From Thiotrichales bacterium (GTDB lineage: Bacteria; Pseudomonadota; Gammaproteobacteria; JAABTG01), in NCBI GenBank assembly GCA_011389995.1, contig JAABTG010000009.1:13482-77481 (forward strand): DNA of 64,000 nt, given 5' to 3'. Positions 5,392-60,735 of the stretch are shown piece by piece. How positions within the stretch are numbered: the first letter of the stretch is position 1; each line of letters starts with the position of its first letter. Position numbers and translations under genes: made by a program. The notes under the pieces are model-generated. The model saw nothing but the letters and a program-made list of their open reading frames with translations, searched no databases and was not told the DNA's origin.

Positions 5392-5419
5392 GGGAATAGG
5401 GAATAGGGAATAGGGAATG
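5392..5419. repeat. Heptanucleotide tandem array (GGGAATA)x4; left arm of the inverted repeat pair flanking the four-helix-bundle gene
   Basis: Direct read: gggaatagggaatagggaatagggaatgg. It lies between the nuoN start codon and the four-helix-bundle gene stop codon. Confidence 0.85.
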
Positions 5420-5422
5420 GCT

Positions 5423-5803
5423 TTAAAGGCGTCTGCGGGCATCCTGGATACTCCGGATGAATCCCGCAAGGAGACGGGACTCATTGGCCACTGTTTGAAA
5501 AATCTCATCATCTCTTTGCAGATATCCCAGTTCGCTCGCAATGATAAGTTGAGTATCCACTTCACTGAGCGAGCCACTTGCCACATCCAGGAACCTCAAC
5601 AATTCCTTATCGCTCCTTCGCGCGACACCCTCCGCAATATTGCTCGGAACAGATACAGACGCCCTGCGAAGCTGCGCGCAAAGGCCATATCGCTCATCTT
5701 TGGGGAACCGTCCAGTTAAATCGTAAACGGCCTTTACAAGAACGATCCCCTGTTTCCATACATCAAGCCTATAGTGGCGTCTCCACTTCACATCGGCATC
5801 CAT
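5423..5803 (-). CDS. Four-helix-bundle protein (TIGR02436, '23S rRNA intervening-sequence protein' family; related to DGR Avd) inserted inside the nuo operon
   Basis: 126 aa: RYGLCAQLRRASVSVPSNIAEGVARRSDKELLRFLDVASGSLSEVDTQLIIASELGYL matches the family signature (QIRRAAxSIxxNIAEG ... GSxxELETQLxIA). A strong SD (GAGGAGGG) sits 6 nt upstream. It is co-oriented with the nuo genes and flanked by inverted heptamer arrays. Confidence 0.85.
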   Translation of the reverse strand: MDADVKWRRHYRLDVWKQGIVLVKAVYDLTGRFPKDERYGLCAQLRRASVSVPSNIAEGVARRSDKELLRFLDVASGSLSEVDTQLIIASELGYLQRDDEIFQTVANESRLLAGFIRSIQDARRRL

Positions 5804-5851
5804 TCCGGTCCCTCCTCGGCCTCACCTGACCCATCCCCGTCCGGCTTCCTG

Positions 5852-5878
5852 CTATTCCCTATTCCCTATTCCCTATTC
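5852..5878. repeat. Heptanucleotide tandem array (TATTCCC)x~4; reverse complement of the (GGGAATA) array
   Basis: Direct read: ctattccctattccctattccctattc, between the nuoM stop (5907) and the four-helix-bundle gene start (5803). It is perfectly complementary to 5392-5419. Confidence 0.85.
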
Positions 5879-9412: not shown

Positions 9413-9718
9413 CTAGCCTTTCATCGTATCCAGATCGGCGACATTGATGGTCTGACGGTTGCGGAACAGCACCACCAGGATCGCCAGGCCGATGGCCGAC
9501 TCCGCGGCCGCCACCGTGAGAATGAAGAACACGAACACCTGGCCCGCGTTGTCACCGAGATAATGGGAGAAGGCGATGAAGTTCATGTTCACCGACAACA
9601 GCATGAGCTCGATGGACATGAGCAGGATGATCACATTCTTGCGGTTGAGGAAGATGCCGGCCATGGACAGGCAGAACATGATGGCCCCCAGGATAAGTAC
9701 GTAGGACAGGGGGATCAC
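9413..9718 (-). CDS. nuoK: NADH-quinone oxidoreductase subunit K
   Basis: 101 aa, three TM helices; NuoK/ND4L. Confidence 0.9.
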
Positions 9719-14448: not shown

Positions 14449-14460
14449 TTTCAGGAGCGA

Positions 14461-14490
14461 GGGAATAGGGAATAGGGAATAGGGAATAGC
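14461..14490. repeat. Heptanucleotide tandem array (GGGAATA)x4 in the nuoG-nuoF spacer
   Basis: Direct read: gggaatagggaatagggaatagggaatagc. Same unit as the arrays flanking the four-helix-bundle gene. Confidence 0.85.
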
Positions 14491-14533
14491 AAGCTACCGC
14501 CCCGGGTCGGCCGCGGCGCGGTGCCCCTAACGA

Positions 14534-14563
14534 CCAATGACGAATGACCAGTGACCAATGACA
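14534..14563. repeat. Degenerate heptanucleotide tandem array (CCAATGA/CGAATGA/CCAGTGA)x4 in the nuoG-nuoF spacer
   Basis: Direct read: gaccaatgacgaatgaccagtgaccaatgac, ending at the nuoF stop codon. Confidence 0.8.
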
Positions 14564-15851: not shown

Positions 15852-16349
15852 CTACTCCAGTCCGTCCAGGATCTCATCCACCCGGGCGGGAGTGAGGTTC
15901 TCGTAGTAAACGTGATCCACCTGCATCATGGGGGCACCGCAACAGGCCGCCAGACACTCCTCCTCGAGCTTGAGGTAGATGCGTCCGTCGGGGGTGCTCT
16001 GACCCACCGCGATGCCGAGCCTGTTCTCGATGTGGGCGAGGATATCGTCGCCACCCCGCAGCATGCAGGACACGTTGGTGCATACGGATACGCTGTGGCG
16101 GCCCACGGGCTCCAACTCGAACATGGAGTAGAAGCTCGCCACCTCGTAGACGGCGATGGCGGGCATCTCCAGATAGGCCGCCACGGCATCCATCAGGGGC
16201 GTGGTGAGGTAACCCCCGTTCTCGTGCTGCACCTCCCGCAGGGCGGCCAGCACTGCAGACTGCTTCTGGTCGTCCGGATAGCGGGCGAGCCAGCGGTCGA
16301 TCTCCTCCCGGGCATGGGCCGAAAGGACGGTGTCAGGGGTGGCCGTCAT
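15852..16349 (-). CDS. nuoE: NADH-quinone oxidoreductase subunit E (2Fe-2S)
   Basis: ~165 aa from [10 protein letters not shown]. Contains [10 protein letters not shown] ... CLAACCGAP. The track ORF is over-extended to 16709; the real start overlaps the nuoD stop. Confidence 0.85.
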
Positions 16350-17602
16350 CAGCGGTCGATCTCCCCGAATACGATGTCCTGGGTGCCGATGACCGCCACC
16401 ACGTCGGCCAGCATATGCCCCTGAACCATCTCGTTCATGGACGCCAGGTGGGCAAAGCCCGGTGCCCTCACCTTGACCCGGTAGGGCTTGTTGGCACCGT
16501 CGGAGATCATATATACGCCGAACTCGCCTTTGGGGTGTTCCAGGGCGGCATAGACCTCGCCCTCGGGCACGCAGTAGCCCTCGGTAAACAGCTTGAAATG
16601 ATGGATCAGGGACTCCATGTCCTCTTTCATCTCCTCCCGCGTCGGAGGGATGATCTTGTGGTCGTCGATGGCCACCGGGCCGGGGTTCGCCCGCAGCCAC
16701 TCTATGCACTGGCGGACGATGTGGTTCGACTGGCGCATCTCCTCCATGCGCACCAGATAGCGGTCATAACAGTCACCATTGACGCCGACGGGGATATCGA
16801 AGCGCACCCGATCGTAGACCTCGTAGGGCTGCTTCTTGCGCAGATCCCACTCCACCCCGGACCCCCGCAGCATCGGCCCCGAGAAGCCGAGTTGCATGGC
16901 CCGCTCCGGTGACACCACGCCGATGCCCACGGTGCGCTGTTTCCAGATGCGGTTATCCGTGAGCAGGGTCTCGTATTCGTCCACGCAGGCCGGGAAACGG
17001 CCGGTGAAGTCCTCGAGGAAATCCAGCAGGGAGCCCTGACGGGTCTCGTTCATGGCCGCCACCTCGACGTCGCTGTGCCACTTGGAGGCCTGATAGCGGG
17101 GCATGGCGTCCGGCAGGTCCCGGTACACGCCGCCGGGGCGGTAATAGGTGGCGTGCATGCGCGAGCCACTCACCGCCTCATAGCAGTCGATGAGGTCCTC
17201 GCGCTCACGGAAGGCGTAGAGGAACACCGTCATGGCACCGATGTCGAGGCCGTGGGCCCCCAGCCACATGAGATGGTTGAGGATGCGCGTGATCTCATCG
17301 AACATGACCCGGATGTACTGGGCCCGCAGAGGCGGCTCGATGCCCAACAGTTTCTCGATGGCCATCACATAGCCGTGCTCGTTGCACATCATGGACACGT
17401 AGTCCAGGCGGTCCATGTAGCCGATGCTCTGGTTATAGGGTTTGCTTTCCGCCAGCTTCTCGGTGCCCCGGTGGAGCAGCCCGATATGGGGATCGGCGCG
17501 TTCTATGACCTCGCCATCCATCTCCAGCACCAGCCGCAACACCCCGTGGGCCGCCGGATGCTGGGGACCGAAGTTCAGGGTCAGATTCTTGATCTCAGGC
17601 AT
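16349..17602 (-). CDS. nuoD: NADH-quinone oxidoreductase subunit D
   Basis: Start [24 protein letters not shown], the canonical NuoD N-terminus. ~417 aa. Confidence 0.9.
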
Positions 17603-23082: not shown

Positions 23083-23113
23083 AAAAGGCCCCCGGCATGC
23101 GGGGGCCTTTCAG
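23083..23113 (-). terminator. Rho-independent terminator of ftsH (bidirectional hairpin)
   Basis: Plus-strand read aaaaaaaaggcccccggcatgcgggggccttt: a GC stem (ggcccccg / cgggggcc) with an A8 run on one side and a T-run on the other. On the minus strand the stem is followed by U8. It lies 3' of ftsH, beyond the 122-bp repeat. Confidence 0.7.
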
Positions 23114-23132
23114 GGTACGCGGACCTGCTTCG

Positions 23133-23250
23133 CCTAACGGACATGGCGCGAGGCCACCCCGAAGGATGAAAGGTGCGCCATGTCCCCCCTCACCCCGGCC
23201 CTCTCCCAGGGGGAGAGGGAGTCCAAAGGTGTCGCTGCGCGACTTTCACG

Positions 23251-23254
<4 letters not shown>
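23133..23254 (+). repeat. 122-bp multi-hairpin intergenic repeat, copy 1, in the ftsH 3'UTR
   Basis: cctaacggacatggcgcgaggccacc...ggtgcgccatgtcc...ccctctcccagggggagaggg...gtcgctgcgcgac...tttcacgttaa. About 95% identical to 42629-42752. Three internal hairpins. The terminal TTAA supplies the ftsH TAA stop codon. Confidence 0.85.
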
Positions 23255-25176
<1,922 letters not shown>

Positions 25177-25225
25177 GTCATTCAACGTGTTAGACCTCTA
25201 CAGCGGCCAAGAATAATTGTCCAAA

Positions 25226-25846
25226 CTATACACCATAGCCCCGTCCGAGCACATAAACCTCTCTCGACCGTGGGCGGGATGCCCTGGGTTTACGCGTCAG
25301 CACCTTGGCAAAGTCCCGACGCATATCCCGGATATATTCATCGAACCCCTCGCCCTGAAACACCTTCGCGAGGAAGCTCCCACCTTCACTTAGCAATTGC
25401 CGGGCCAAGTCCAGTGCGAGTTCTGACAGGAACATGGCCCGGGGCTGATCCACATTCCTTACTCCACTCATATTGGGCGCCAAGTCTGACATTACAAGAT
25501 CAGCGCCGGAATCCCCCACCGTTGTGACTATCTGTGCCACCACGGCATCGTCATGGAAGTCTCCCTGTATGAACTCGACGCCCGCCAGAGGTTCCATTGG
25601 AAGGATGTCGGTCGCCACCACCCGTCCTTTACTGCCAATACGTTCCAGGGCCACCTGGGACCATCCACCGGGCGCCGCCCCCAGGTCCACCACCATCCGC
25701 GCCGCGGCCAGCAGGCGATCCCGATCGTCTATCTCCAGGAGCTTGTAGACCGACCGCGAACGGTAACCGGCGCTCCTTGCCCGTTTGACATAGATGTCAT
25801 CCTGGTGTTCCTTAATCCACCGCTTACTACTATGGGAATGTTGCAT
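25226..25846 (-). CDS. rlmE: 23S rRNA (uridine2552-2'-O)-methyltransferase RlmE/FtsJ
   Basis: Start [14 protein letters not shown]. Contains [11 protein letters not shown], the SAM-binding motif. Synteny with ftsH. The track ORF is extended to 25909. Confidence 0.9.
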
Positions 25847-26120
25847 GTTGTCAGGAAAACACAAGAACGAGCTGCGTGGCCGGGCCCATGCACTGCGCCC
25901 CGTGGTCACCGTGGGTTCCGGCGGTGCCGGCCCCGGTGTGCTGGCGGAACTGGATGCGGCCCTCCAGGCCCATCAGCTGGTCAAGGTCAAGCTGCCCTCG
26001 TCTGATCGATACGAGCGGGCTGCACTGGCGGATCACCTGTGTATCGCCAGTGGTGCGGAGCTGGTACAGGCCATGGGGCGCATGGCGGTGCTGTACCGCG
26101 CCCGCCAGGACCACCCCTGA
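25845..26120 (+). CDS. yhbY: RNA-binding protein YhbY (CRS1/YhbY domain)
   Basis: [27 protein letters not shown] ... LVKVKL is collinear with E. coli YhbY. It is divergent from rlmE and shares the CATG of the two start codons. Confidence 0.85.
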
Positions 26121-32969: not shown

Positions 32970-33827
<858 letters not shown>

Positions 33828-33861
33828 TGCTGCACTCAACTCCTTCACTCTGCCGGCCAAG

Positions 33862-33903
33862 AACAAAGGACAAAGGACAAAGGACAAAGGACAAAGGACA
33901 AGG
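33862..33903. repeat. Heptanucleotide tandem array (GGACAAA)x~5, dapB-dnaJ spacer; near-inverted relative to the (TTTGTCA) array
   Basis: Direct read: aacaaaggacaaaggacaaaggacaaaggacaaggacaagg, ending at the dnaJ stop. Confidence 0.8.
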
Positions 33904-42071: not shown

Positions 42072-42542
42072 ATGCCAGGCAAAATCGACCAGCGCCTCGC
42101 CGATCTGGGCATCGAGATACCGGTCACCCCGGCCCCCCAGTTCAACTACGTACCGGTACAGTTCAGCGACCATCTCGCCTTCGTGGCCGGCCAGGTGCCC
42201 ATGGCCGACGGCGCGGTCCGCTACAGCGGCCAGGTGGGTACCCATCTGGACGTGGAGGCGGGCCAGGCAGCCGCGCGGCTGTGCGCCATCAACATGCTGG
42301 CGCAATTGAAGACGGCCCTCGATGGCGACCTCGATCGCATCGTCAAGGTGTTGCGGGTGGGGGGCTTCGTGAGTTGTGCAGCGGATTTCACCGCCCAGGG
42401 CCAGGTCATCAACGGCGCGTCCGACCTGTTGGTGGAGGTTTTGGGAGACGCCGGGCGCCACGCCCGCGCCGCCGTGGGCTGCTCGTCCCTGCCCCTCGGG
42501 GCCGCCGTGGAGGTGGAGGGACTGTTCATGGTGGATCGCTGA
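42072..42542 (+). CDS. RidA/YjgF-family (endoribonuclease L-PSP-like) protein
   Basis: ~156 aa from MPGKIDQRLADLGIEIP. YjgF/chorismate-mutase-like fold pattern. The track ORF is N-terminally extended to 41817. Confidence 0.7.
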   Translation: MPGKIDQRLADLGIEIPVTPAPQFNYVPVQFSDHLAFVAGQVPMADGAVRYSGQVGTHLDVEAGQAAARLCAINMLAQLKTALDGDLDRIVKVLRVGGFVSCAADFTAQGQVINGASDLLVEVLGDAGRHARAAVGCSSLPLGAAVEVEGLFMVDR

Positions 42543-42544
42543 AT

Positions 42545-42573
42545 CAAGCCATGCTGGCTTTCTCAGCGCGCCC
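42545..42573. repeat. 29-bp terminator-like palindromic motif (copy in inverse orientation)
   Basis: atcaagccatgctggctttctcagcgcgc. Its reverse complement gcgctgagaaagccagcatggcttgat matches 58994-59022 (gcgctgagaaagccaggatggctttat) at 27 of 29 positions. Confidence 0.6.
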
Positions 42574-42628
42574 GAAGCGCAAAGTGGAGCCTGCAACCAT
42601 CCCGCCCGCCGTCGGCGGGCCCATCCCG

Positions 42629-42752
42629 CCTAACGGACATGGCGCGAGGCCACCCCGAAAGGATGAAAGGTGCGCCATGTCCGTCCCTCACCCCGGCCCT
42701 CTCCCAGGGGGAGAGGGAGTCCAAGGGTGTCGCTGCGCGACTTTCACGTTAA
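42629..42752 (+). repeat. 122-bp multi-hairpin intergenic repeat, copy 2, in the fur 3'UTR
   Basis: About 95% identical to 23133-23254 and in the same orientation. The terminal TTAA supplies the fur TAA stop codon. Confidence 0.85.
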
Positions 42753-43174
42753 CCCTCGTAATGGGGGCACTTGGCGCGGGTACAGTCGCCGTAGATGATG
42801 AGGGAATGGTCGGTGATGTCGAAGCCCGCCTTCTTGGCCACCGTGTGTTGATGCTTCTCGATGGTCTGATCCACGAATTCCTCGATGTAACCGCACTGAT
42901 TACACACGATATGGTCGTGATGCTTGCCTTCATAGAGTTCGAAGACCGCCTGGCCACCCTCGAAGTTATGCCTTTCCACCAGCCCGGCCGTCTCGAACTG
43001 GGTCAACACCCGGTAGACGGTCGCCAGGCCCACCTCTTCGCCGGCATCGAGTAGCGCCCGGTAGACGTCCTCGGCGCTGACGTGGCGCTTTTCCGACTGT
43101 TCGAGGATATTGAGGATGCGGATACGCGGGAGAGTGGCCTTGAGCCCGGCCTTTTTCAGATCATGACGGTCCAT
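42749..43174 (-). CDS. fur: Ferric uptake regulator Fur
   Basis: Start MDRHDLKKAGLKATLPRIRIL. Contains HHDHIVCNQCG and is collinear with E. coli Fur. The track ORF is extended to 43228. Confidence 0.9.
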   Translation of the reverse strand: MDRHDLKKAGLKATLPRIRILNILEQSEKRHVSAEDVYRALLDAGEEVGLATVYRVLTQFETAGLVERHNFEGGQAVFELYEGKHHDHIVCNQCGYIEEFVDQTIEKHQHTVAKKAGFDITDHSLIIYGDCTRAKCPHYEG

Positions 43175-54004: not shown

Positions 54005-56353
54005 ATGGCCGCCAAGCCCTCCACCCGCCCCCGCCCCCATCCCACCCGTATCGGTCGCTACGTGGTGGGAGGGATCCTGGGCCGCGGTGCCCAGGGGGTG
54101 GTCTACCTGGCCACGGATCCGGAACTCGACCGGGAGGTGGCCATCAAGACCCTGACCCGCCGCACCCGGGATGCCGCCACCCTCCTCAAGGAGGCCCAGC
54201 TGGTGGGACGCATGAAACACCCCGGCATCGTGCCGGTATACGACGCCGGGCGCCTGGGGGACGTGCCCTACGTGGTCTACGAGCGGGTCAGGGGGCGCAC
54301 CCTGGACCAGGTGCTCGCGGAGGAGCCCCGCCTGCCCCTGCCCCGCATCGTGGCCTGGATGACGCAGATCCTGGACGCCCTGGAATACGCCCATGGCCAG
54401 CAGGTGGTGCATCGCGACATCAAACCCGCCAACGTGGTGATTCAGGACGACGACTCCCCGCGGGTGCTGGATTTCGGCATCGCGCTCCCCAGCGGTACCG
54501 AGACCCGGGTCATGGAGGGCCTGTGGGGCACCTTCCAGTACCTGGCACCGGAGATGGTGGACAAGGGGCGGGCCACGGCGGCCACGGACATCTTCTCCCT
54601 GGGGCTCATCCTGTTCGAAATGCTCACCGGCCGGCGCGCCATCGCCGAAGACGACCCCATGGCGGCCATGTACCACATCGCCCATCGGCCGGTACCCCCG
54701 CCGTCATCCATCCGTCCCGAGGTGGCCCCCGGCCTCGACGGCATCGTGTCCCGGGCCCTGCAGAAGCGGCCCGACGCCCGTTACTCCGATGCCGGCGAGA
54801 TGCGGGACGCCCTGGCGGTATTCGCCGAACCCGAGGTGCACGAGCATGAGCCACGCCGCCAGTCGACCCTGAATTTCCTGTTGCGGCGCATGCGCCAGAA
54901 GCCGGATTTTCCCGCCATCGGGCGCCACATCTCGGAGATCAGCCAGAAGACCGCCGCCATCGATCGCGCATCGGTGGACGAGCTCACCAACCTGATCCTG
55001 GAAGACTATGCCCTCACCACCAAGCTGCTGCGGCTGGTGAACTCCTCCTACTACGGCCAGTACGGTGGTTCCATCAGCACCGTATCCCGGGCGGTGGTGA
55101 TCCTCGGCTTCAACCAGGTGCGCATGGCGGCCCTGAGCCTGCTGCTGTTCGAGCACATCGCCGACAAGCCCAACGTGCCGGTGCTCAAGGAGGTGGGCGG
55201 ACGGGCCTTCTTCAGCGGCCTCATCAGCCGCCGCCTGGCCGCCGACATGGCCCACGCCGACGCCGAACAGGGCTTCGTGAGCGCCATGTTCCACACCCTG
55301 GGACGCTATCTGTCGGCCTATTATTTTCCCGACGAGGACGAGGAGATCGGCCGTCTCATGGACAACCAGGGCCTGTCCGAGGAGGCCGCCGCCGTGGCAG
55401 TGCTCGGCCTCACCTTCGAGGCCCTGGGCATCGGCGTGGGCAGGGAGTGGCATCTGCCCTCCGAACTCCTGGAAGGCATGCGCACCCTGGGTGTCGACGA
55501 GATGCCGCGGCGTCCCGCCAACCCCCGGCAGGCCATGCGCCTGCTGTCCTGTTTCGCCAACGAGGTGGCCATGGCCATGGGCGGCGACGACCCCGGCGCA
55601 TGCCACGAACGCCTGTCACAGCTGGAGCAGCGTTACGGTCAGGCGGTGCGGCTGGCGCCGGACCGCATGCAACAGGTGATCGCCGAGGGCGTGGAGGATA
55701 TCCAGCGCTTCTCCCGCGCCGCCGCCATCGACCTCGGCGACAATGCCATCCTGCGCAACGCCCGCCGCCTGGGGCGGCAGGAGGAGGACTCGGAGGACGA
55801 GGACCCTCGGGAAGGTGCCGCCGTGGAGGACAGCGGCCAAAACGACGCACCATCGACCCAGACCACGCTGCTGAGCGGCATTCAGGACATCAGCCAGGCC
55901 CTGGTGGACAACTACGGCATCAACGACATTCTCATCATGATCCTCGAGACCCTGTTCCGGGGTCTCGGCTTCACGCGGGTGGTGCTGTTCATCAACAACT
56001 CCCGGCAGGCCGAGATGAACGCCCGCTTCGGCCTCGGTCGCGACATCGACAAGCTGCTGCCCCGCCTCAAGTTCTCCACCACCAGGGCCCAGGACATATT
56101 CGGCCGGGCGGTGCGCGAACACGAGGACATCATCCAGGTCCAGGGGCCCCGGGGGGGAGACATACCGGCCTGGCACCGCGACCTGCTCTCTCCCAGCACC
56201 TTCGCCCTCTACCCGGTAATCATCGGCAACAAGTGCCTCGGCCTCATCTACGCCGATCGCGACGAACGCAACCGCCCCATCACCGAAGCCGAGCGCAATT
56301 ACCTCAACACCCTGCGCAACCAGGCGGCCCTGGCGATTCGGCAAAGATCATAG
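54005..56353 (+). CDS. Hanks-type Ser/Thr protein kinase fused to HDOD and C-terminal GAF domains
   Basis: N-terminus has GxGxxG (ILGRGAQGVVY), catalytic HRDIKPANV, DFGIA and APE. The middle has the HDOD signature (LRLVNSSYYGQYGGSISTVSRAVVILGFNQVR). The C-terminal ~180 aa are GAF-like. Confidence 0.8.
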   Translation: MAAKPSTRPRPHPTRIGRYVVGGILGRGAQGVVYLATDPELDREVAIKTLTRRTRDAATLLKEAQLVGRMKHPGIVPVYDAGRLGDVPYVVYERVRGRTLDQVLAEEPRLPLPRIVAWMTQILDALEYAHGQQVVHRDIKPANVVIQDDDSPRVLDFGIALPSGTETRVMEGLWGTFQYLAPEMVDKGRATAATDIFSLGLILFEMLTGRRAIAEDDPMAAMYHIAHRPVPPPSSIRPEVAPGLDGIVSRALQKRPDARYSDAGEMRDALAVFAEPEVHEHEPRRQSTLNFLLRRMRQKPDFPAIGRHISEISQKTAAIDRASVDELTNLILEDYALTTKLLRLVNSSYYGQYGGSISTVSRAVVILGFNQVRMAALSLLLFEHIADKPNVPVLKEVGGRAFFSGLISRRLAADMAHADAEQGFVSAMFHTLGRYLSAYYFPDEDEEIGRLMDNQGLSEEAAAVAVLGLTFEALGIGVGREWHLPSELLEGMRTLGVDEMPRRPANPRQAMRLLSCFANEVAMAMGGDDPGACHERLSQLEQRYGQAVRLAPDRMQQVIAEGVEDIQRFSRAAAIDLGDNAILRNARRLGRQEEDSEDEDPREGAAVEDSGQNDAPSTQTTLLSGIQDISQALVDNYGINDILIMILETLFRGLGFTRVVLFINNSRQAEMNARFGLGRDIDKLLPRLKFSTTRAQDIFGRAVREHEDIIQVQGPRGGDIPAWHRDLLSPSTFALYPVIIGNKCLGLIYADRDERNRPITEAERNYLNTLRNQAALAIRQRS

Positions 56354-56385
56354 TTCGAGCCGAAGATGGGCCAGTATTGTTCAAT

Positions 56386-56449
56386 GCCGAGATGGGCCAT
56401 CCATGGCCCACTTCGGCGCGGCAGGGGAAAACGCGGTTTTCCCCTGCCT
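56386..56449 (+). repeat. 64-bp direct repeat, copy A, with a perfect 12-bp-stem hairpin (GCAGGGGAAAAC-GCG-GTTTTCCCCTGC)
   Basis: gccgagatgggccatccatggcccacttcggcgcggcaggggaaaacgcggttttcccctgcct. Repeated 160 bp downstream with 1 mismatch. Confidence 0.85.
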
Positions 56450-56545
56450 ACATGGGTCGCGCCGGGCGCGCCCCATGGCGAGGCTCCTGCCTCGCGGGGA
56501 CTTCCGGCTTCGCAGCTCTATGCCGGGATGGGGCGGATCGTTCAA

Positions 56546-56630
56546 GCCGGGATGGGCCATCCATGGCCCACTTCGGCGCGGCAGGGGAAAACGCGGTTTT
56601 CCCCTGCCTCGCGGGGGCTTCCGGCCAAAG
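56546..56630 (+). repeat. 64-bp direct repeat, copy B, plus the shared tail ctcgcgggg(a/g)cttccgg
   Basis: Identical to copy A apart from g/a at position 5. Copy A carries an extra 38-bp GC-palindromic insert before the shared tail. Confidence 0.85.
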
Positions 56631-56704
56631 CTCATGCGGCTAGGGCGCGTAGCCGAGCGGGGGTCGGGAGTCGGGGGTGGACCAGCACTAAGGGCATCAC
56701 AATT

Positions 56705-56751
56705 AAAAATTCAAAATTCAAAATTCAAAATTGAAACCGCATAGCGGTTTC
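56705..56751. repeat. Heptanucleotide tandem array (AAAATTC)x~4 followed by an 8-bp-stem hairpin (gaaaccgc-ata-gcggtttc)
   Basis: Direct read: aaaaattcaaaattcaaaattcaaaattgaaaccgcatagcggtttc. AT-rich island ~260 bp upstream of fdhD. Confidence 0.8.
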
Positions 56752-57006
56752 CTGCCGTGGTGAGGACCAAGGATGTGGAAAATTGTGCCAAGAGTGCTCA
56801 CATTCCTAGCCATATTGTCCTATCCATGAGGAATGCAGGGACAAAATGCGGCAATCTCCGGTGGTTTTGCCGACGACGACGGGGCTTTGCGCCCCGTAAC
56901 CGCGGTCCCCGGGGCGCTGCCGGCCCGATGGGAATGGTTCTTGCTTGGACTTTGGGAGGCCGCCGCGGCAGGCGGCCATCGGCTTACCCAGGAGTACCCC
57001 AGCCCC

Positions 57007-57910
57007 CATGAAAGACACCCCTCCCCGTTACGTGCCGGAAATGAGCGACGCCGGCCTGCGCCCCTCCCACGAGGTGGTGGCCATCGACGAATACGGTACG
57101 TCCCGGGCCGGCTTCGTGGCCGGTGAGCGTGCCCTCGCCCTGGTGCTGGACGACCGCGAGGTGGTCACCCTCATGACCCTCGGCAGCCACCCGGAGCTCC
57201 TGACCCTGGGTTACCTCCTCAACCAGCGCCTGGTGCCCTGTCTCGAATCCGTCGATGCCATCACCGTCGACTGGGACAAGGCCATCGTGAAGGTGGACAC
57301 CTTCGAACGCATCAGCGACCTCGAGGAGAAGATGAAGCACCGCACCGTCACCAGCGGTTGCGGCCAGGGCACGGTGTTCGGACGCATGGCGGAACAGATA
57401 GAGAACATCCGCCTGACCCCGCGCACCGTCGCCCAGTCGGAGATCTACGCCCTCCTGGAACACCTGACGGATTACAACGAGGTCTACAAGCAGGCCGGCG
57501 CGGTGCATGGCTGCGCGCTGTGTGAGGTCCATCCCCGGGAGGGCCCGCGCATCCACCTGTTCGTGGAGGACGTGGGGCGCCACAACGCAGCAGACGCCAT
57601 CAGCGGCTACATGTGGCTGAACGGCGTGGACGGCGGCGACAAGTGCTTCTATACCACCGGGCGTCTCACCTCCGAGATGGTCATCAAGGTGGCCCAGATG
57701 GGCATCTCGGTGCTGCTGTCCCGCTCCGGCGTCACCTTCAAGGGCCTCGAACTCGCCCGCACCATCGGCGTCACCATGATCGCCCGCGCCAAGGGACGGC
57801 ATTTTCTCGTCTACAACGGCGCCGAGCACATCGTCTTCGACGCCATCCCGCCGGCGCGTCCGGCGGGCGCCGGCGGTACGCGGCGCCGGAGCACGGCCGA
57901 CGTGGGCTGA
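57007..57910 (+). CDS. fdhD: Formate dehydrogenase accessory sulfurtransferase FdhD
   Basis: Start MKDTPPRYVPEM. Contains SGCGQGTVFG and HNAADAISGYMWLNG motifs of FdhD. The track ORF is extended to 56945. Confidence 0.85.
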
Positions 57911-57915
57911 ACACC

Positions 57916-58833
57916 ATGAGCGCCGTCATGACCACCGACACGCCCGCCGTCTTCATGAACGTCAAGCAGGTGGCCAGTTATCTCCACCTCAACGAAAAGA
58001 AGATCTACGCCATGGCCAGCGAGGGGCGGATCCCGGCCACCAAGATCACCGGCAAATGGATGTTCCCCCGGGAACTCATCGACCGCTGGATACTGGACTC
58101 GGCCCACGGCGGCCTGCTGGTGGACCGCCTGGCCATCGCCGGCAGCGATGACCCCCTCCTCTACCGGGTGGTGACGGGCTTCACCCGCGACCTCAAGGCC
58201 CACGCCCAGATCAGCTACACCCCCACGGGCACGCGCCTCGGCCTGGACCTGCTGCAGTCCCAGCGCATCGACGTGGGCGGGCTGCACTGGGGGCCCGGCA
58301 CCGAGAGCCATACCCGCCATCCCGCCCTGCTGCGCCAGTATTCCCAGCACCGCAACTGGGTGCTGATCCGCGCCTTCTCCCGGGAGCAGGGGCTGATGGC
58401 CCGGGCCTCGGTGCTCAGCCGCACCAGGGACCCCGCGGAACTCGCCGCATCCCGCTTTCGCTGGGTGCAGCGCCAGTCCGGTTCCGGCGCCCAGCGTTTC
58501 CTCATGGAGATGTACAACCAGCCCGGGGCCTGGCCCCACAGCCTCAACGTCACCACCACCGCCCTGTCGGAGCGCGAGGCGGCCACCGCCATCGTCATGG
58601 ATCAGGCGGACGTCGCCCCCGGCTCGCGGGCCGCCGCCAACGAGGCCGGCCTCGGCTTCGTCTCCTTCGGCTGGGAATCCTTCGACTTCGCCCTGCCCCG
58701 CAACATCTGGTTCCGGCGCCTGTTCCAGGAGCTGCTGTCGCGTCTCAACTGCGGCGAGGGCCGCCGCCTGGCGGACACCCTCGGGGGCTACGAGATGAAG
58801 GGCACGGGGGAACTGGTGTGGGCCCACGAATAG
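57916..58833 (+). CDS. Excisionase/MerR-type HTH DNA-binding protein fused to a periplasmic-binding-protein-like (molybdate/tungstate-type) domain
   Basis: N-terminus VKQVASYLHLNEKKIYAMASEGRIPATKITGKWMF (HTH_17-like). The ~250-aa C-terminal domain has PBP-fold-like alternating pattern. Located between fdhD and mobAB. Confidence 0.55.
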   Translation: MSAVMTTDTPAVFMNVKQVASYLHLNEKKIYAMASEGRIPATKITGKWMFPRELIDRWILDSAHGGLLVDRLAIAGSDDPLLYRVVTGFTRDLKAHAQISYTPTGTRLGLDLLQSQRIDVGGLHWGPGTESHTRHPALLRQYSQHRNWVLIRAFSREQGLMARASVLSRTRDPAELAASRFRWVQRQSGSGAQRFLMEMYNQPGAWPHSLNVTTTALSEREAATAIVMDQADVAPGSRAAANEAGLGFVSFGWESFDFALPRNIWFRRLFQELLSRLNCGEGRRLADTLGGYEMKGTGELVWAHE

Positions 58834-58962
58834 AACCGCCGCGCCAGCCACCCCAGCCATGCCGGGTTTCGCGTCCCTCAACCCGGCCTGCGGAGCTTTC
58901 AACGCGTCCTGCGGCCCAGGGATGGGCCGCCATTCTCGGACCCGCCAGGGTTCGAGAATGAC

Positions 58963-58993
58963 GCCCAGGGAAAATCGCATTTTCCCTGGGCGT
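58963..58993. promoter_or_regulatory. Perfect palindrome CGCCCAGGGAAAAT-CGC-ATTTTCCCTGGGCG, related to the 56386/56546 hairpin
   Basis: Shares the core GGGAAAAnCGCnTTTTCCC with the hairpin in the tandem repeat upstream of fdhD. Confidence 0.5.
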
Positions 58994-59034
58994 GCGCTGA
59001 GAAAGCCAGGATGGCTTTATTCAGCGCTTTTATT
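58994..59034 (+). terminator. Rho-independent terminator (hairpin plus TTTTATT) shared by convergent fdhD-HTH and sigma54-activator transcripts
   Basis: gcgctgagaaagccaggatggctttattcagcgc followed by ttttatt. The T-run overlaps the stop codon of the minus-strand regulator gene. Confidence 0.65.
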
Positions 59035-60493
59035 ATGAACTCCCCCAGGCCTGACACTTGCGCTCCAGGGTCTTGCGGGATATCCCGAGCCGCCGTGCCG
59101 CCGCGGACTTGTTGCCGTCCTCCATGGCCAGCACCCTGAGGATGTGGCGGCGCTCCACGCTCTCGAGGGACAGGTCGTCCTCCTGGCCCGCCACCGCCTC
59201 CTCCGGGGTGCCCCGATATCCGGACAGGCACTGGGACGGCCGGCTGTTGAGCAACAGGGCGCGTTCGATGACGTTGCGCAATTCCCGGATGTTGCCCGGC
59301 CACTCGTAACGGGCCAGCCGATCCAGCTCGGCGTCGCCGATGGCCGGGGCCTCCACCCCCAGTTCGGTGGCCAACAGGCCGCAGAAGTAATGCACCAGTT
59401 CGGGCAGGTCCGCCGCCCGCTCCCGCAGGGCCGGCATACGAATGCTGAGGACGTTGAGGCGGTAGTACAGGTCCTCGCGGAACCTGCCCTCGGCCACCTC
59501 CTGTTGGAGTTGACGGTTGGTGGCGGCCACCAGACGCACGTCCACGGTGACCTGGGAATTGCCTCCCATGGGCCGCACCGCCCGTTCCTCCATCACCCGC
59601 AGCAGATGGGTCTGCATGGTCAGCGGCATCTCGCCGATCTCATCCAGGAACAGGGTGCCGCCGTCGGCGTAGGAGAACAGGCCTTCCCGCGCCTGACTCG
59701 CCCCCGTGAAGGCCCCTTTGACGTGGCCGAACAACTCGCTTTCCAGCAACTCGCCGTTCATGGAACCGCAGTTCACCGGCACGAAGGCCCCGTTTCGGCC
59801 GCTCCAACGGTGCAGGGCCCGGGCCGCCAACTCCTTTCCGGTGCCGGACTCGCCCTCGATGAGCACCGTGGAGGGCCTGGGGGCCACCCGCTTGATGACG
59901 TCACATATGCCCTTGATGGCCTCGCAGGAACCCACCATGCCACTGCTGTCATAGAGGTGATCCACCTGGCGATGGAGGGCATAGTTCTCCTGCTCCATGC
60001 GCCGACGCTCCAGGGTGCGCGTCAGGGCCTCTTCCATCTGCTCCATGGTGAAGGGCTTGAGGATCAGGTCCGAGCCCCCGGAGCGCAGGGCCTCGATGGC
60101 GGTCTTCACGTCGGCGTCGGCGGCCATGAAGATCACCGGCGTGCCGCAATCGCGGGCCCGCAGATCAAAGACCCAGTCCACCCCGGAACGGTCCGGCAGA
60201 CCCACCGCGACGATGATGAGATCGAAATGGCAGCGGGCCAGCAGTTCGTCGGCGGTGCTGCTGTTCTCCACTACTTCCACGAGGCTGAAGCGGGGGAGGA
60301 GCCCTTTGCGCAGCAGGTTGATGGTGGCCGTGTCGCCGTCCACCACGAGGACCGAGCTGAGACGTGCGTTGGGGGTCGTGGAGGCCTGGGGGCTCGCCGC
60401 GTCAGTCACCGCGGCCGCCTCGACCCGCCGGGTATGAACCCTGGAATCGCGTCGAACATGCTCTCTCCTTGGCTGGGGACAGAAGAAACCCAA
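59033..60493 (-). CDS. Sigma54-dependent two-component response regulator (NtrC family: receiver + AAA+ sigma54-activation + Fis HTH)
   Basis: Receiver domain (VLVVDGD ... [14 protein letters not shown]). AAA+ domain with Walker A GESGTGKE, the GAFTGA motif ([11 protein letters not shown]) and ELFGH. C-terminal HTH ([20 protein letters not shown]). The N-terminus is uncertain: the track start is a TTG and there is no early ATG. Confidence 0.85.
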
Positions 60494-60537
60494 AGGGGCC
60501 GGGATGCCCAGGGTTACTCCTCAGGACAGGTGAAAAT

Positions 60538-60552
60538 AGGACATTCTGTCCT
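60538..60552. promoter_or_regulatory. Palindromic putative enhancer-binding site AGGACA-TTC-TGTCCT
   Basis: A perfect 6-bp inverted repeat with a 3-bp spacer, plus an adjacent half-site (caggacagg). It lies ~175 bp upstream of the sigma54 promoter, in the divergent regulator/mobA intergenic region. Confidence 0.4.
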
Positions 60553-60718
60553 GCGCATTCAACCCGAATTGGTCAATTTGCCCCACATCGTCGGCGGCCT
60601 GACGGATCCGGTTCCCTCGCTCGGGTGGAGCACCGGGGTCCATGCGGGACACCGGCGCCGGACGATCCACCGTCCCGGCATCCGCCCCACGCCCGTGGCC
60701 GCGCCAAAGGAGCGCCCA

Positions 60719-60735
60719 TGGCACCGGTATTGCTT
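60719..60735 (+). promoter_or_regulatory. Sigma54 (-24/-12) promoter for mobA-mobB-moeA
   Basis: TGGCACcggtaTTGCTt matches TGGCAC-N5-TTGCW exactly. It lies 180 bp upstream of the mobA ATG on the coding strand. Confidence 0.65.

Follow-up and report, generated by a model that had tools for sequence, protein, structure and literature searches.

The distal part of the spacer between a Ser/Thr kinase gene and fdhD (positions 56354-56760 of the window, i.e., the whole 64,000-nucleotide stretch of contig JAABTG010000009.1 from a Thiotrichales bacterium) is probably a structured intergenic repeat akin to the repetitive extragenic palindromic (REP), bacterial interspersed mosaic element (BIME) and enterobacterial repetitive intergenic consensus (ERIC) sequences, and would lie outside the conserved control region of fdhD. 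The same explanation, which we favor as a whole, seeks the real control of fdhD in the 200 nt before the start codon, where a putative sigma-54 -24/-12 element and a TTGTCC...GGACAA dyad are found. Comparison with close relatives shows the repeat module to be a lineage-specific insertion or expansion, the spacers of these relatives being either short or filled with other repeats. The main gain is one of annotation: a conspicuous but lineage-specific repeat is told apart from the short conserved stretch most likely to control fdhD, and a new module of structured repeats is described through its coordinates, a covariance model and compensatory changes.

The repeated four-hairpin module

A 64-nt direct repeat at a spacing of 160 nt, reported in the first-pass annotation of this spacer, is present at 56386-56449 and 56546-56609 (63/64 identical, with no chance matches among shuffles). 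The hairpin ascribed to each copy also exists and has the 3-nt loop, but its stem (GGCAGGGGAAAAC-GCG-GTTTTCCCCTGCC) is perfect over 13 bp, not over 9 or 12 bp, and the shared tail CCTGCCTCGCGGGGrCTTCCGGC is found at 56486 and 56603. The repeat unit itself is larger than first described, namely a module of ~125 nt made of four adjacent hairpins (H1-H4 in plus-strand order). Copy A (56377-56500, minus strand) is complete, with H1 at 56386-56417, H2 at 56420-56448, H3 at 56451-56477 and H4 at 56478-56495, only 0-2 nt apart from each other. Its minus-strand loops are AGGA (H4) and UGGA (H1), and it folds at -83.7 kcal/mol on the minus strand (z -5.6) and at -85.1 kcal/mol on the plus strand, z being about -5.5 on the whole. 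It is preceded by a segment (GTTCGAGCCGAAGATGGGCCA..., 56353-56385, plus strand) that starts on the final nucleotide of the kinase stop codon and is, by direct-repeat families and a global alignment of A against B, a partial duplicate of the H1 outer arm.

Copy B (56537-56618, minus strand), delimited by inverted repeats and by the covariance model R1 (see below), is a deletion derivative that retains H1 (56546-56577) and H2 (56580-56608, extendable to 56576-56612) and is without H3 and most of H4, ~50 model positions being missing. The extra GC-rich segment described for copy A, palindrome included, is indeed there, but measures 43 nt (56450-56492) and not 38; a palindrome of 27 nt (56451-56477) lies in it, together with the greater part of a hairpin of 18 nt (56478-56495). 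The segment lies between two 7-nt direct repeats, CCTGCCT (56443-56449 and 56486-56492), which point to a microhomology deletion in copy B. Given that another copy, C, has H3 and H4 as well, the four hairpins are the ancestral state, and the idea of a recent tandem duplication followed by an indel holds, with the indel now polarized as a deletion in copy B.

Copy C (58906-59036, plus strand) is full, diverged and inverted relative to A and B. The third palindrome noted earlier downstream of fdhD (58961-58993, a perfect 15-bp stem with a 3-nt loop) is its hairpin H2', accompanied by H4' (58911-58930), H3' (58931-58960) and H1' (58994-59027); the loops of H4' and H1' are GGGA and GGA, respectively. 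The copy overlaps the NtrC-like gene, which is convergent, at its stop codon, folds at -90 kcal/mol (z -10.8) and aligns locally to the unit with a score of 30 (shuffles 18.8 +/- 2.6). R1, which was built from copy C alone, matches copy A over its full length on the minus strand (62.8 bits, E 4e-12, vs 28.1 bits on the opposite, plus strand) and copy B without H4 and H3 (35.3 bits, E 3e-6). As a plus-strand model thus finds A and B on the minus strand, the two must be inverted relative to C. A partial fourth copy was detected downstream of fur (42528-42643, minus strand; 23.8 bits, E 1e-3 window-wide), ~14 kb from the fdhD copies. Its hairpin of the H1 type (42537-42569) agrees with H1' of copy C at 31/33 positions, with the loop GCA instead of GGA; a GGCGGGATGGGCCCGCC hairpin occupies the H4 position, and H2 is missing. 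The presence of this copy next to fur, 14 kb away, means that the hairpin family is not specific to fdhD.

Alignment of the copies on R1 leaves 96% of the cells paired, and 23 of the 51 pairs have changed on both sides and still pair (at most four in slid controls). The alignment was fitted to the model, so these figures lean towards structure, and the contrast with the controls is large; in this comparison of copies, the four helices are shown to be kept by compensatory changes. The suggestion that the tandem unit is a small structured RNA is therefore sustained in its structural part, by a four-hairpin module with compensatory changes, while its transcription is a prediction. A search against Rfam returned only a tRNA at the gathering score, and the module resembles no family at that score; RsmW (copy A) and CrfA (copy C) appeared below threshold. 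The relatives' loci gave no Rfam matches.

Relatives and the conserved control region of fdhD

The 654-nt spacer is flanked by two plus-strand genes, the kinase gene with HDOD and GAF domains on the left (54005-56353, stop codon TAG at 56351-56353) and fdhD on the right (57008-57910, ATG at 57008). An HTH_17/PBP_like regulator gene follows 3' of fdhD (57928-58833, plus strand), convergent with a gene for an NtrC-type sigma-54 activator (59033 to ~60409, minus strand), beyond which mobA-mobB-moeA are divergent from the NtrC-like gene. An FdhD identical to that of the window is recorded from an NCBI metagenome-assembled genome, one member of the 90% FdhD cluster is named uncultured Gammaproteobacteria bacterium, and the named relatives at 72-77% identity belong to Chromatiaceae, Sedimenticolaceae, Thiosocius and symbionts. 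A search for exact matches to the kinase protein, aimed at other assemblies of the left flank, returned no record. We took as close relatives those with FdhD at least 90% identical, i.e., L122 (GCA_034522055.1) and L245, L246 and L247 (JGI metagenomes); L248 is more distant (FdhD 77% identical), and L124 is another sample of the window's species.

The close relatives keep the order secretin-kinase-fdhD-HTH/PBP-NtrC-mobA, and their spacers align with that of the window only along ~200-230 nt adjoining fdhD. Copies A, B and C are missing in these relatives, and the GGGAAAA dyads are not found at the orthologous positions of L122, L245, L247 and L248, where gene order and promoter are kept. The distal spacer of L122 holds GTAG-headed inverted palindromes, a different repeat family that recurs after moeA, the one of L247 holds unrelated sequence between arms resembling terminal inverted repeats (TIRs), and the whole kinase-fdhD spacer of L248 measures 235 nt. 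The site of copy C is occupied in L124 by the copy, in L245 by ~10 nt and in L122 by 85 nt of unrelated sequence. R1 detected nothing convincing in 55 kb of related loci, L124 excepted. A scan of the genome collection with GGGGAAAACNNNGTTTTCCCC gave at least 120 unrelated loci (Halieaceae, Omnitrophota, candidate phyla radiation, Ruminococcaceae), none of those listed sharing the flanks of the window, and a metagenome scan with CAGGGN{0,1}AAAAYNNNRTTTTN{0,1}CCCTG gave mostly gut contigs, with no homologue among the matches listed; such hairpin patterns are loose and common in unrelated taxa. Two independent assemblies of the window's species break off shortly to the right of the repeat region, L001 (SRR29699978) at 56732 and L124 (SRR29699989) at 56795, consistent with strain-level variation or assembly difficulty of the distal spacer. 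We also considered A/B and C as a composite element mobilizing the fdhD-HTH/PBP pair, and rejected it because relatives without the repeats keep the gene order.

The GTAG-headed family of L122 is REP/REPIN-like (REPIN, REP doublets forming hairpins), with members at 9479-9507, 9541-9569 and 9615-9642 in the kinase-fdhD spacer and at 16279-16307 and 16686-16723 after moeA. TIR-like arms bound the distal spacers of both L122 (9420-9448 and 9685-9713) and L247 (1241-1252 and 1594-1605), and their arrangement suggests that these spacers are miniature inverted-repeat transposable element (MITE)-like inserts at the same site.

The promoter-proximal part of the spacer contains five blocks that are invariant or nearly so: ATTGTCCTAT, AGGGACAAAATGyGGCA, ATGGGAATGGTTyTTGC, a leader hairpin and the ribosome-binding site. 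The first two together make up the dyad TTGTCC-N18-GGACAA (56815-56844), the sole such dyad in the window. The longer segment 56815-56853 (plus strand), i.e., TTGTCCTAT-N13-AGGGACAA with the invariant AAATGyGGCA, does not vary among close relatives and is a candidate activator-binding site (upstream activating sequence) of the fdhD promoter, located ~90-115 nt upstream of the sigma-54 element. Further out, the arms of the dyad co-vary (TTGTCCC/GGGTCAA in L248, TTGTCT/AGACA in L249 and TTGTCGC/GCGACAA in L252). The weak sigma-54-like element that had been noted near fdhD is present as GGGAATGGTTCTTGCT at 56930-56945 (plus strand; GG at 56931-56932, GC at 56943-56944), 64 nt before the ATG. It combines GG-N10-GC with TTGC at -12, its distance to the start codon is suitable, and its support comes from conservation, not from consensus: with three mismatches to the consensus, it is one of 68 such sites in the window (99 expected), i.e., no better than chance, while ATGGGAATGGTTyTTGC is invariant in L122, L245, L246 and L247 as the rest of the spacer diverges. 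The GG-N10-GC core and the TTGC are kept in five other lineages, out to 72-77% FdhD identity, with variants such as CGGAACGATTCTTGCT (L248), GGGAATGTTTATTGCA (L249) and CGGAACGCTTCTTGCA (L252); in L249 and L252 the element is found upstream of moaA-fdhD. The gene for the NtrC-type activator is close by. Between the element and fdhD, an inverted repeat conserved in relatives forms the leader hairpin (GGAGGCCGCCGC-GGCA-GGCGGCC), followed by the ribosome-binding site AGGAG at 56990-56994 (the two spanning 56953-56994, plus strand).

A sigma-54 promoter closer to the consensus, and stronger than that of fdhD, precedes mobA-mobB-moeA (TGGCACCGGTATTGCT, 60719-60734), and a perfect dyad, AGGACA-TTC-TGTCCT (60536-60553), is placed ~170 nt upstream of it. 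Dyad and promoter are both conserved in L122 (13437-13457 and 13609-13626). A further near-consensus match, TGGCCCGGCAATTGCT, with one mismatch, is seen at 25392-25407 (minus strand) in the 665-nt spacer 25186-25850. The octamer ATAGGACA occurs twice in the window, upstream of fdhD (56816-56823, minus strand) and in the mobA upstream dyad; 8 of 100 shuffles reach two. It thus appears from these motifs that the molybdenum (Mo) cofactor cluster runs on sigma-54 promoters with a common ATAGGACA-type dyad.

These results bear on the proposal that the GGGAAAA-N5-TTTTCCC dyads of the repeats are double-stranded DNA operators or enhancers flanking fdhD-HTH/PBP, to be bound by the HTH/PBP or the NtrC-like regulator. 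The three dyads are the strongest perfect palindromes of the window and flank the operon, and the cluster does seem to use sigma-54 promoters. The window has eight distinct perfect hairpins whose stems reach 9 bp or more, and the GGGAAAA-type ones of A, B and C are longer than the others. However, the dyads are missing in all close relatives, in which regulators, gene order and promoter are kept, A and B precede the -24 element by 330-500 nt, and C is downstream of the operon. The stems of A/B and C differ in length and sequence through compensatory changes, which fits a hairpin and not a fixed recognition sequence. Likewise, the GCCA/TGGC arms of H1 enclose a loop of 4 nt in A/B and of 3 nt in C, a difference that a hairpin would tolerate and a dimeric operator would not. 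As an enhancer for the NtrC-like protein, the conserved TTGTCC...GGACAA dyad, with the ATAGGACA that it has in common with the mobA dyad, is a far better candidate. We therefore regard operators or enhancers as an unlikely role for the GGGAAAA dyads, and the specific scheme of paired sites around fdhD-HTH/PBP as very improbable. Relatives without the repeats and the third palindrome retain gene order and promoter-proximal blocks, and the module also occurs downstream of fur; these are largely the kinds of observation that the first-pass annotation had itself named as speaking against its proposal.

Nature and possible roles of the module

The REP/BIME/ERIC-like class is suggested for the module by its lineage-specific presence, the partial copy elsewhere, starts at stop codons, compensatory change, duplication and microhomology deletion. 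In three of the four copies, the start is no more than ~35 nt away from a stop codon: A starts at that of the kinase gene, C at that of the convergent activator, and the 42.5-kb copy comes directly after a 125-nt repeat that begins at the fur stop codon. Other structured repeats of the window, e.g., this 125-nt ftsH/fur repeat, also begin exactly at stop codons. The REP sequences (or palindromic units), BIMEs and REPINs of Enterobacteria and Pseudomonas are similar in being GC-rich, imperfect, species-specific extragenic palindromes, often placed directly behind stop codons or in between convergent genes, in the compensatory changes of their stems and in forming clusters and mosaics, and REPs can stabilize mRNA 3' ends or partly terminate transcription. 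A typical GTAG-headed inverted REP doublet is carried by L122 in the same spacer. In contrast to REPs and BIMEs, A and B are a direct tandem and not an inverted doublet, and the module is a fixed series of four hairpins. We see no support for membership in REP proper, because the unit is composite and without a conserved GTAG head: it measures ~125 nt with four different hairpins (20-40 nt in REP palindromes), and GTAG precedes H2 in copy A only (minus strand), with CGAG in B and ATGA in C. ERIC sequences, also known as intergenic repeat units, are repeats of ~127 nt found in either orientation at transcribed intergenic or 3'-untranslated region (3'-UTR) sites, patchily distributed among relatives and with frequent internal indels. 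The module is similar in size, position, patchiness and internal deletion, but consists of four separate hairpins where ERIC forms one long imperfect stem-loop with a conserved central inverted repeat.

Several observations weigh against a structured intergenic repeat of this class. No TIRs came up when the A-B spacer was scanned for repeats or when the ends of copy C were read, and no link to a transposase or REP-associated tyrosine transposase (RAYT) and no target-site duplication was noted, no screen having been aimed at Y1 transposases or duplications. Both L122 and L245/L247 carry at this locus, immediately 5' of the conserved block, a ~30-nt remnant of H1 and the beginning of H2 (GGGCCATCCcTGGCCCcTTCGGCGC), so part of the module is ancestral here and not a new insertion. 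Moreover, the four copies are within a single 64-kb window, three of them inside 2.7 kb around fdhD, and the cores of A and B are 98% identical against ~70% in their flanks, which needs gene conversion or selection. REP/REPIN families, by comparison, typically have tens to hundreds of extragenic copies in a genome and a cognate RAYT gene that the repeats flank. Finally, five of the six independent H1/H4 loops retain GGA, hinting at a sequence-specific function.

If the module acts at all, we think that it would do so through very stable hairpins, as a 3'-end barrier or terminator. It is probably co-transcribed with the upstream gene as a set of 3'-UTR hairpins. Copy C likely constitutes the 3' UTR and terminator of the fdhD-HTH/PBP operon; H1' is plausible as the terminator, because a U-tract (UUUUAUUAU, 59028-59036) comes directly after it. 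Copies A and B may insulate the sigma-54 promoter of fdhD from read-through from the kinase gene, or block exonucleases. For every copy, the fold on the strand of the adjacent upstream gene is as good as the one on the opposite strand or slightly better: C and B are ~5 kcal/mol better on the window plus strand, A is equal on both, and the preference of C and B for the strand of the upstream genes weakly backs co-transcription. An attempt to assign the functional strand from G-U pairs and fold energies was abandoned, as the outcome was mixed across A, B and C. The module itself would spread and change through duplication, slippage and deletion. R1 can be searched in full genomes, where it could tell whether such modules mark transcript 3' ends, move or bind protein.

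Local processes could also have produced the repeats as functionless by-products, by a recent tandem duplication of ancestral spacer sequence followed by decay, the hairpins persisting only because palindromes arise and are copied as units. This would agree with the near-identity of the A and B cores and the deletion at microhomology, with an H1 remnant ancestral at the locus, with spacers that vary greatly among lineages at this site and with the same-species assembly breaks at 56732 and 56795. It is, however, harder to reconcile with two-sided changes in 23 of 51 pairs that still pair, in copies only ~60-65% identical, with the retained loop GGA and with copy C ending in a well-formed hairpin and a U-tract at the operon end. 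Jointly, the compensatory pairs, the retained GGA and the hairpin plus U-tract of copy C suggest that structure is under selection in some of the copies at least, and we consider an origin without any function unlikely.

The retained GGA raises the further possibility that the module is a decoy or binding platform of the CsrA/RsmA type, either derived from a 3' UTR or an independent small RNA (sRNA), as are RsmW, RsmY and RsmZ. In one consistent orientation, the H4/H1 loops read AGGA/UGGA in copy A and GGGA/GGA in copy C and fit CANGGANG with the closing pair opened, the H1 remnant of L245/L247 reads AGGGAU, and the loop GGA stayed while the stems diverged. RsmW is an RsmA binder derived from a 3' UTR, with three of its seven GGA motifs in loops (PMC4950607, PMC13622538). 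Copy A (minus strand) matches the Rfam model of RsmW (RF02809) over its full length with 37.8 bits (gathering 52; E 8e-5 in a 501-nt search), copy B reaches 17.8 bits against the same gathering score, and copy C is within a 3' UTR and ends with a likely terminator. The likeness to RsmW and the Csr/Rsm decoys (Rfam clan CL00106) is that of a hairpin series with loop GGA and of copy C in a 3' UTR; the differences are a sub-threshold score, a low density of GGA, the want of a GacA box and one copy without the loop GGA.

The density amounts to four GGA per ~130 nt (two in loops per full copy), about the level given by composition, vs seven to eight in RsmY/RsmZ, and the loop of the fourth copy is GCA. 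Copy C matches the unrelated CrfA about as well (31.5 bits, E 4e-4); since two unrelated families score alike, memberships in RsmW and CrfA were rejected and the matches taken as generic for GC-rich multi-hairpin sequence. A and B, read in the GGA orientation, have no recognizable promoter, GacA box or terminator (neither a sigma-70 promoter nor a GacA box was found), and a terminator-like hairpin is situated upstream on that strand. No csrA gene is present in the 64-kb window and, to our knowledge, no Csr antagonist RNA is known in this uncultured sulfur-oxidizer lineage. We consider it quite improbable that the module belongs to this type, and give an equally low rating to the wider proposal that the modules are dispersed RNA protein-binding platforms with NGGA loops, located in 3' UTRs (the fdhD-regulator operon, fur) or separately transcribed, which would titrate a CsrA/RsmA-type regulator. 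If true, Mo-cofactor and formate dehydrogenase maturation as well as iron regulation would be linked to Csr control, and functional GGA loops, unlikely as they are, would offer a way to Csr-type decoys beyond the genera that are well studied. The structured intergenic repeat remains our preferred reading of the module.

Other elements of the spacer and of the window

Open reading frames (ORFs) called across the repeat had been dismissed as artefacts, and we agree: they have no Pfam or NCBIfam match and no homologue in the protein database, and the 122-aa ORF over the repeat, used as a protein-database query for other copies called as genes, had no match.

Between copy B and the conserved region, a small hairpin, CGGCTA-GGGCGCG-TAGCCG (56637-56655), is followed by a G-rich stretch, and neither is kept in relatives. 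The AAAATTC array described downstream of the repeats is present at 56697-56736 as 5.7 copies of the heptamer TCAAAAT/AAAATTC (period 7) in a patch of 40-47% GC (66% in the window), and it is missing in relatives. The 8-bp hairpin reported next to it is also there, at 56733-56751 (minus strand), as GAAACCGC-TAT-GCGGTTTC; on the minus strand only, the RNA would read GAAACCGC-UAU-GCGGUUUC and run on into U-rich heptamers. From its sequence, this hairpin looks like an intrinsic terminator for leftward transcription from the fdhD promoter region. It is the sole terminator-like site in 56000-59300, a yield not above chance expectation; neither a gene nor a promoter feeding it was identified on the minus strand, and the array and the hairpin are both lineage-specific.

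At least seven short heptamer arrays are found in intergenic spacers of the window, with units that differ (AAAATTC, GGGAATA, GACCAAT, GTCATTT and AAGGACA). Heptamer direct repeats (TAACTGA) have been described from intergenic regions of Beggiatoaceae and cyanobacteria (MacGregor 2015, PMC4679880). The window and one relative resemble these in having short heptamer arrays in spacers, but there a single heptamer occurs genome-wide, whereas the unit of the window varies from array to array. The GACCAAT, GTCATTT and AAGGACA arrays (14532-14562, 33792-33818 and 33859-33901) take up short spacers between co-directional genes, as does the array of the relative, with the unit GGGAAAT (L122, 16360-16395). 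Inverted arrays, (GGGAATA)4 at 5392-5418 and (TATTCCC)4 at 5852-5878, flank a low-GC insert that encodes a four-helix-bundle protein of the 23S_rRNA_IVP family (5425-5806, minus strand; Pfam E 6e-33), and a GGGAATA-type array is seen again at 14460-14489.

The 125-nt structured repeat of the ftsH and fur genes is 96.7% identical between its two copies (23131-23256 and 42627-42753, minus-strand reading), which start with TTAACGTGAAAGTCGCG... at the TAA stop codons of these genes. On the ftsH side, the stop codon precedes the repeat, and a canonical terminator (23084-23110, with a T-run) follows it.

Outside the window, a motif of the form GTGAGACCTGGAT-GGGGAAAAC-NNN-GTTTTCCCC-ATYATTC is present in seven loci (L009, L011, L015, L016, L021, L048 and L073) and about 25 other Halieaceae/Cellvibrionales loci. 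It matches no Rfam family at the gathering score, and may represent an sRNA or leader not described so far. In three loci it is found twice, at a spacing of 300-480 nt, namely in L021 (3698 and 4179), L048 (3950 and 4385) and L073, the copies of L021 being located in a non-coding spacer beside a sigma-54 response regulator.

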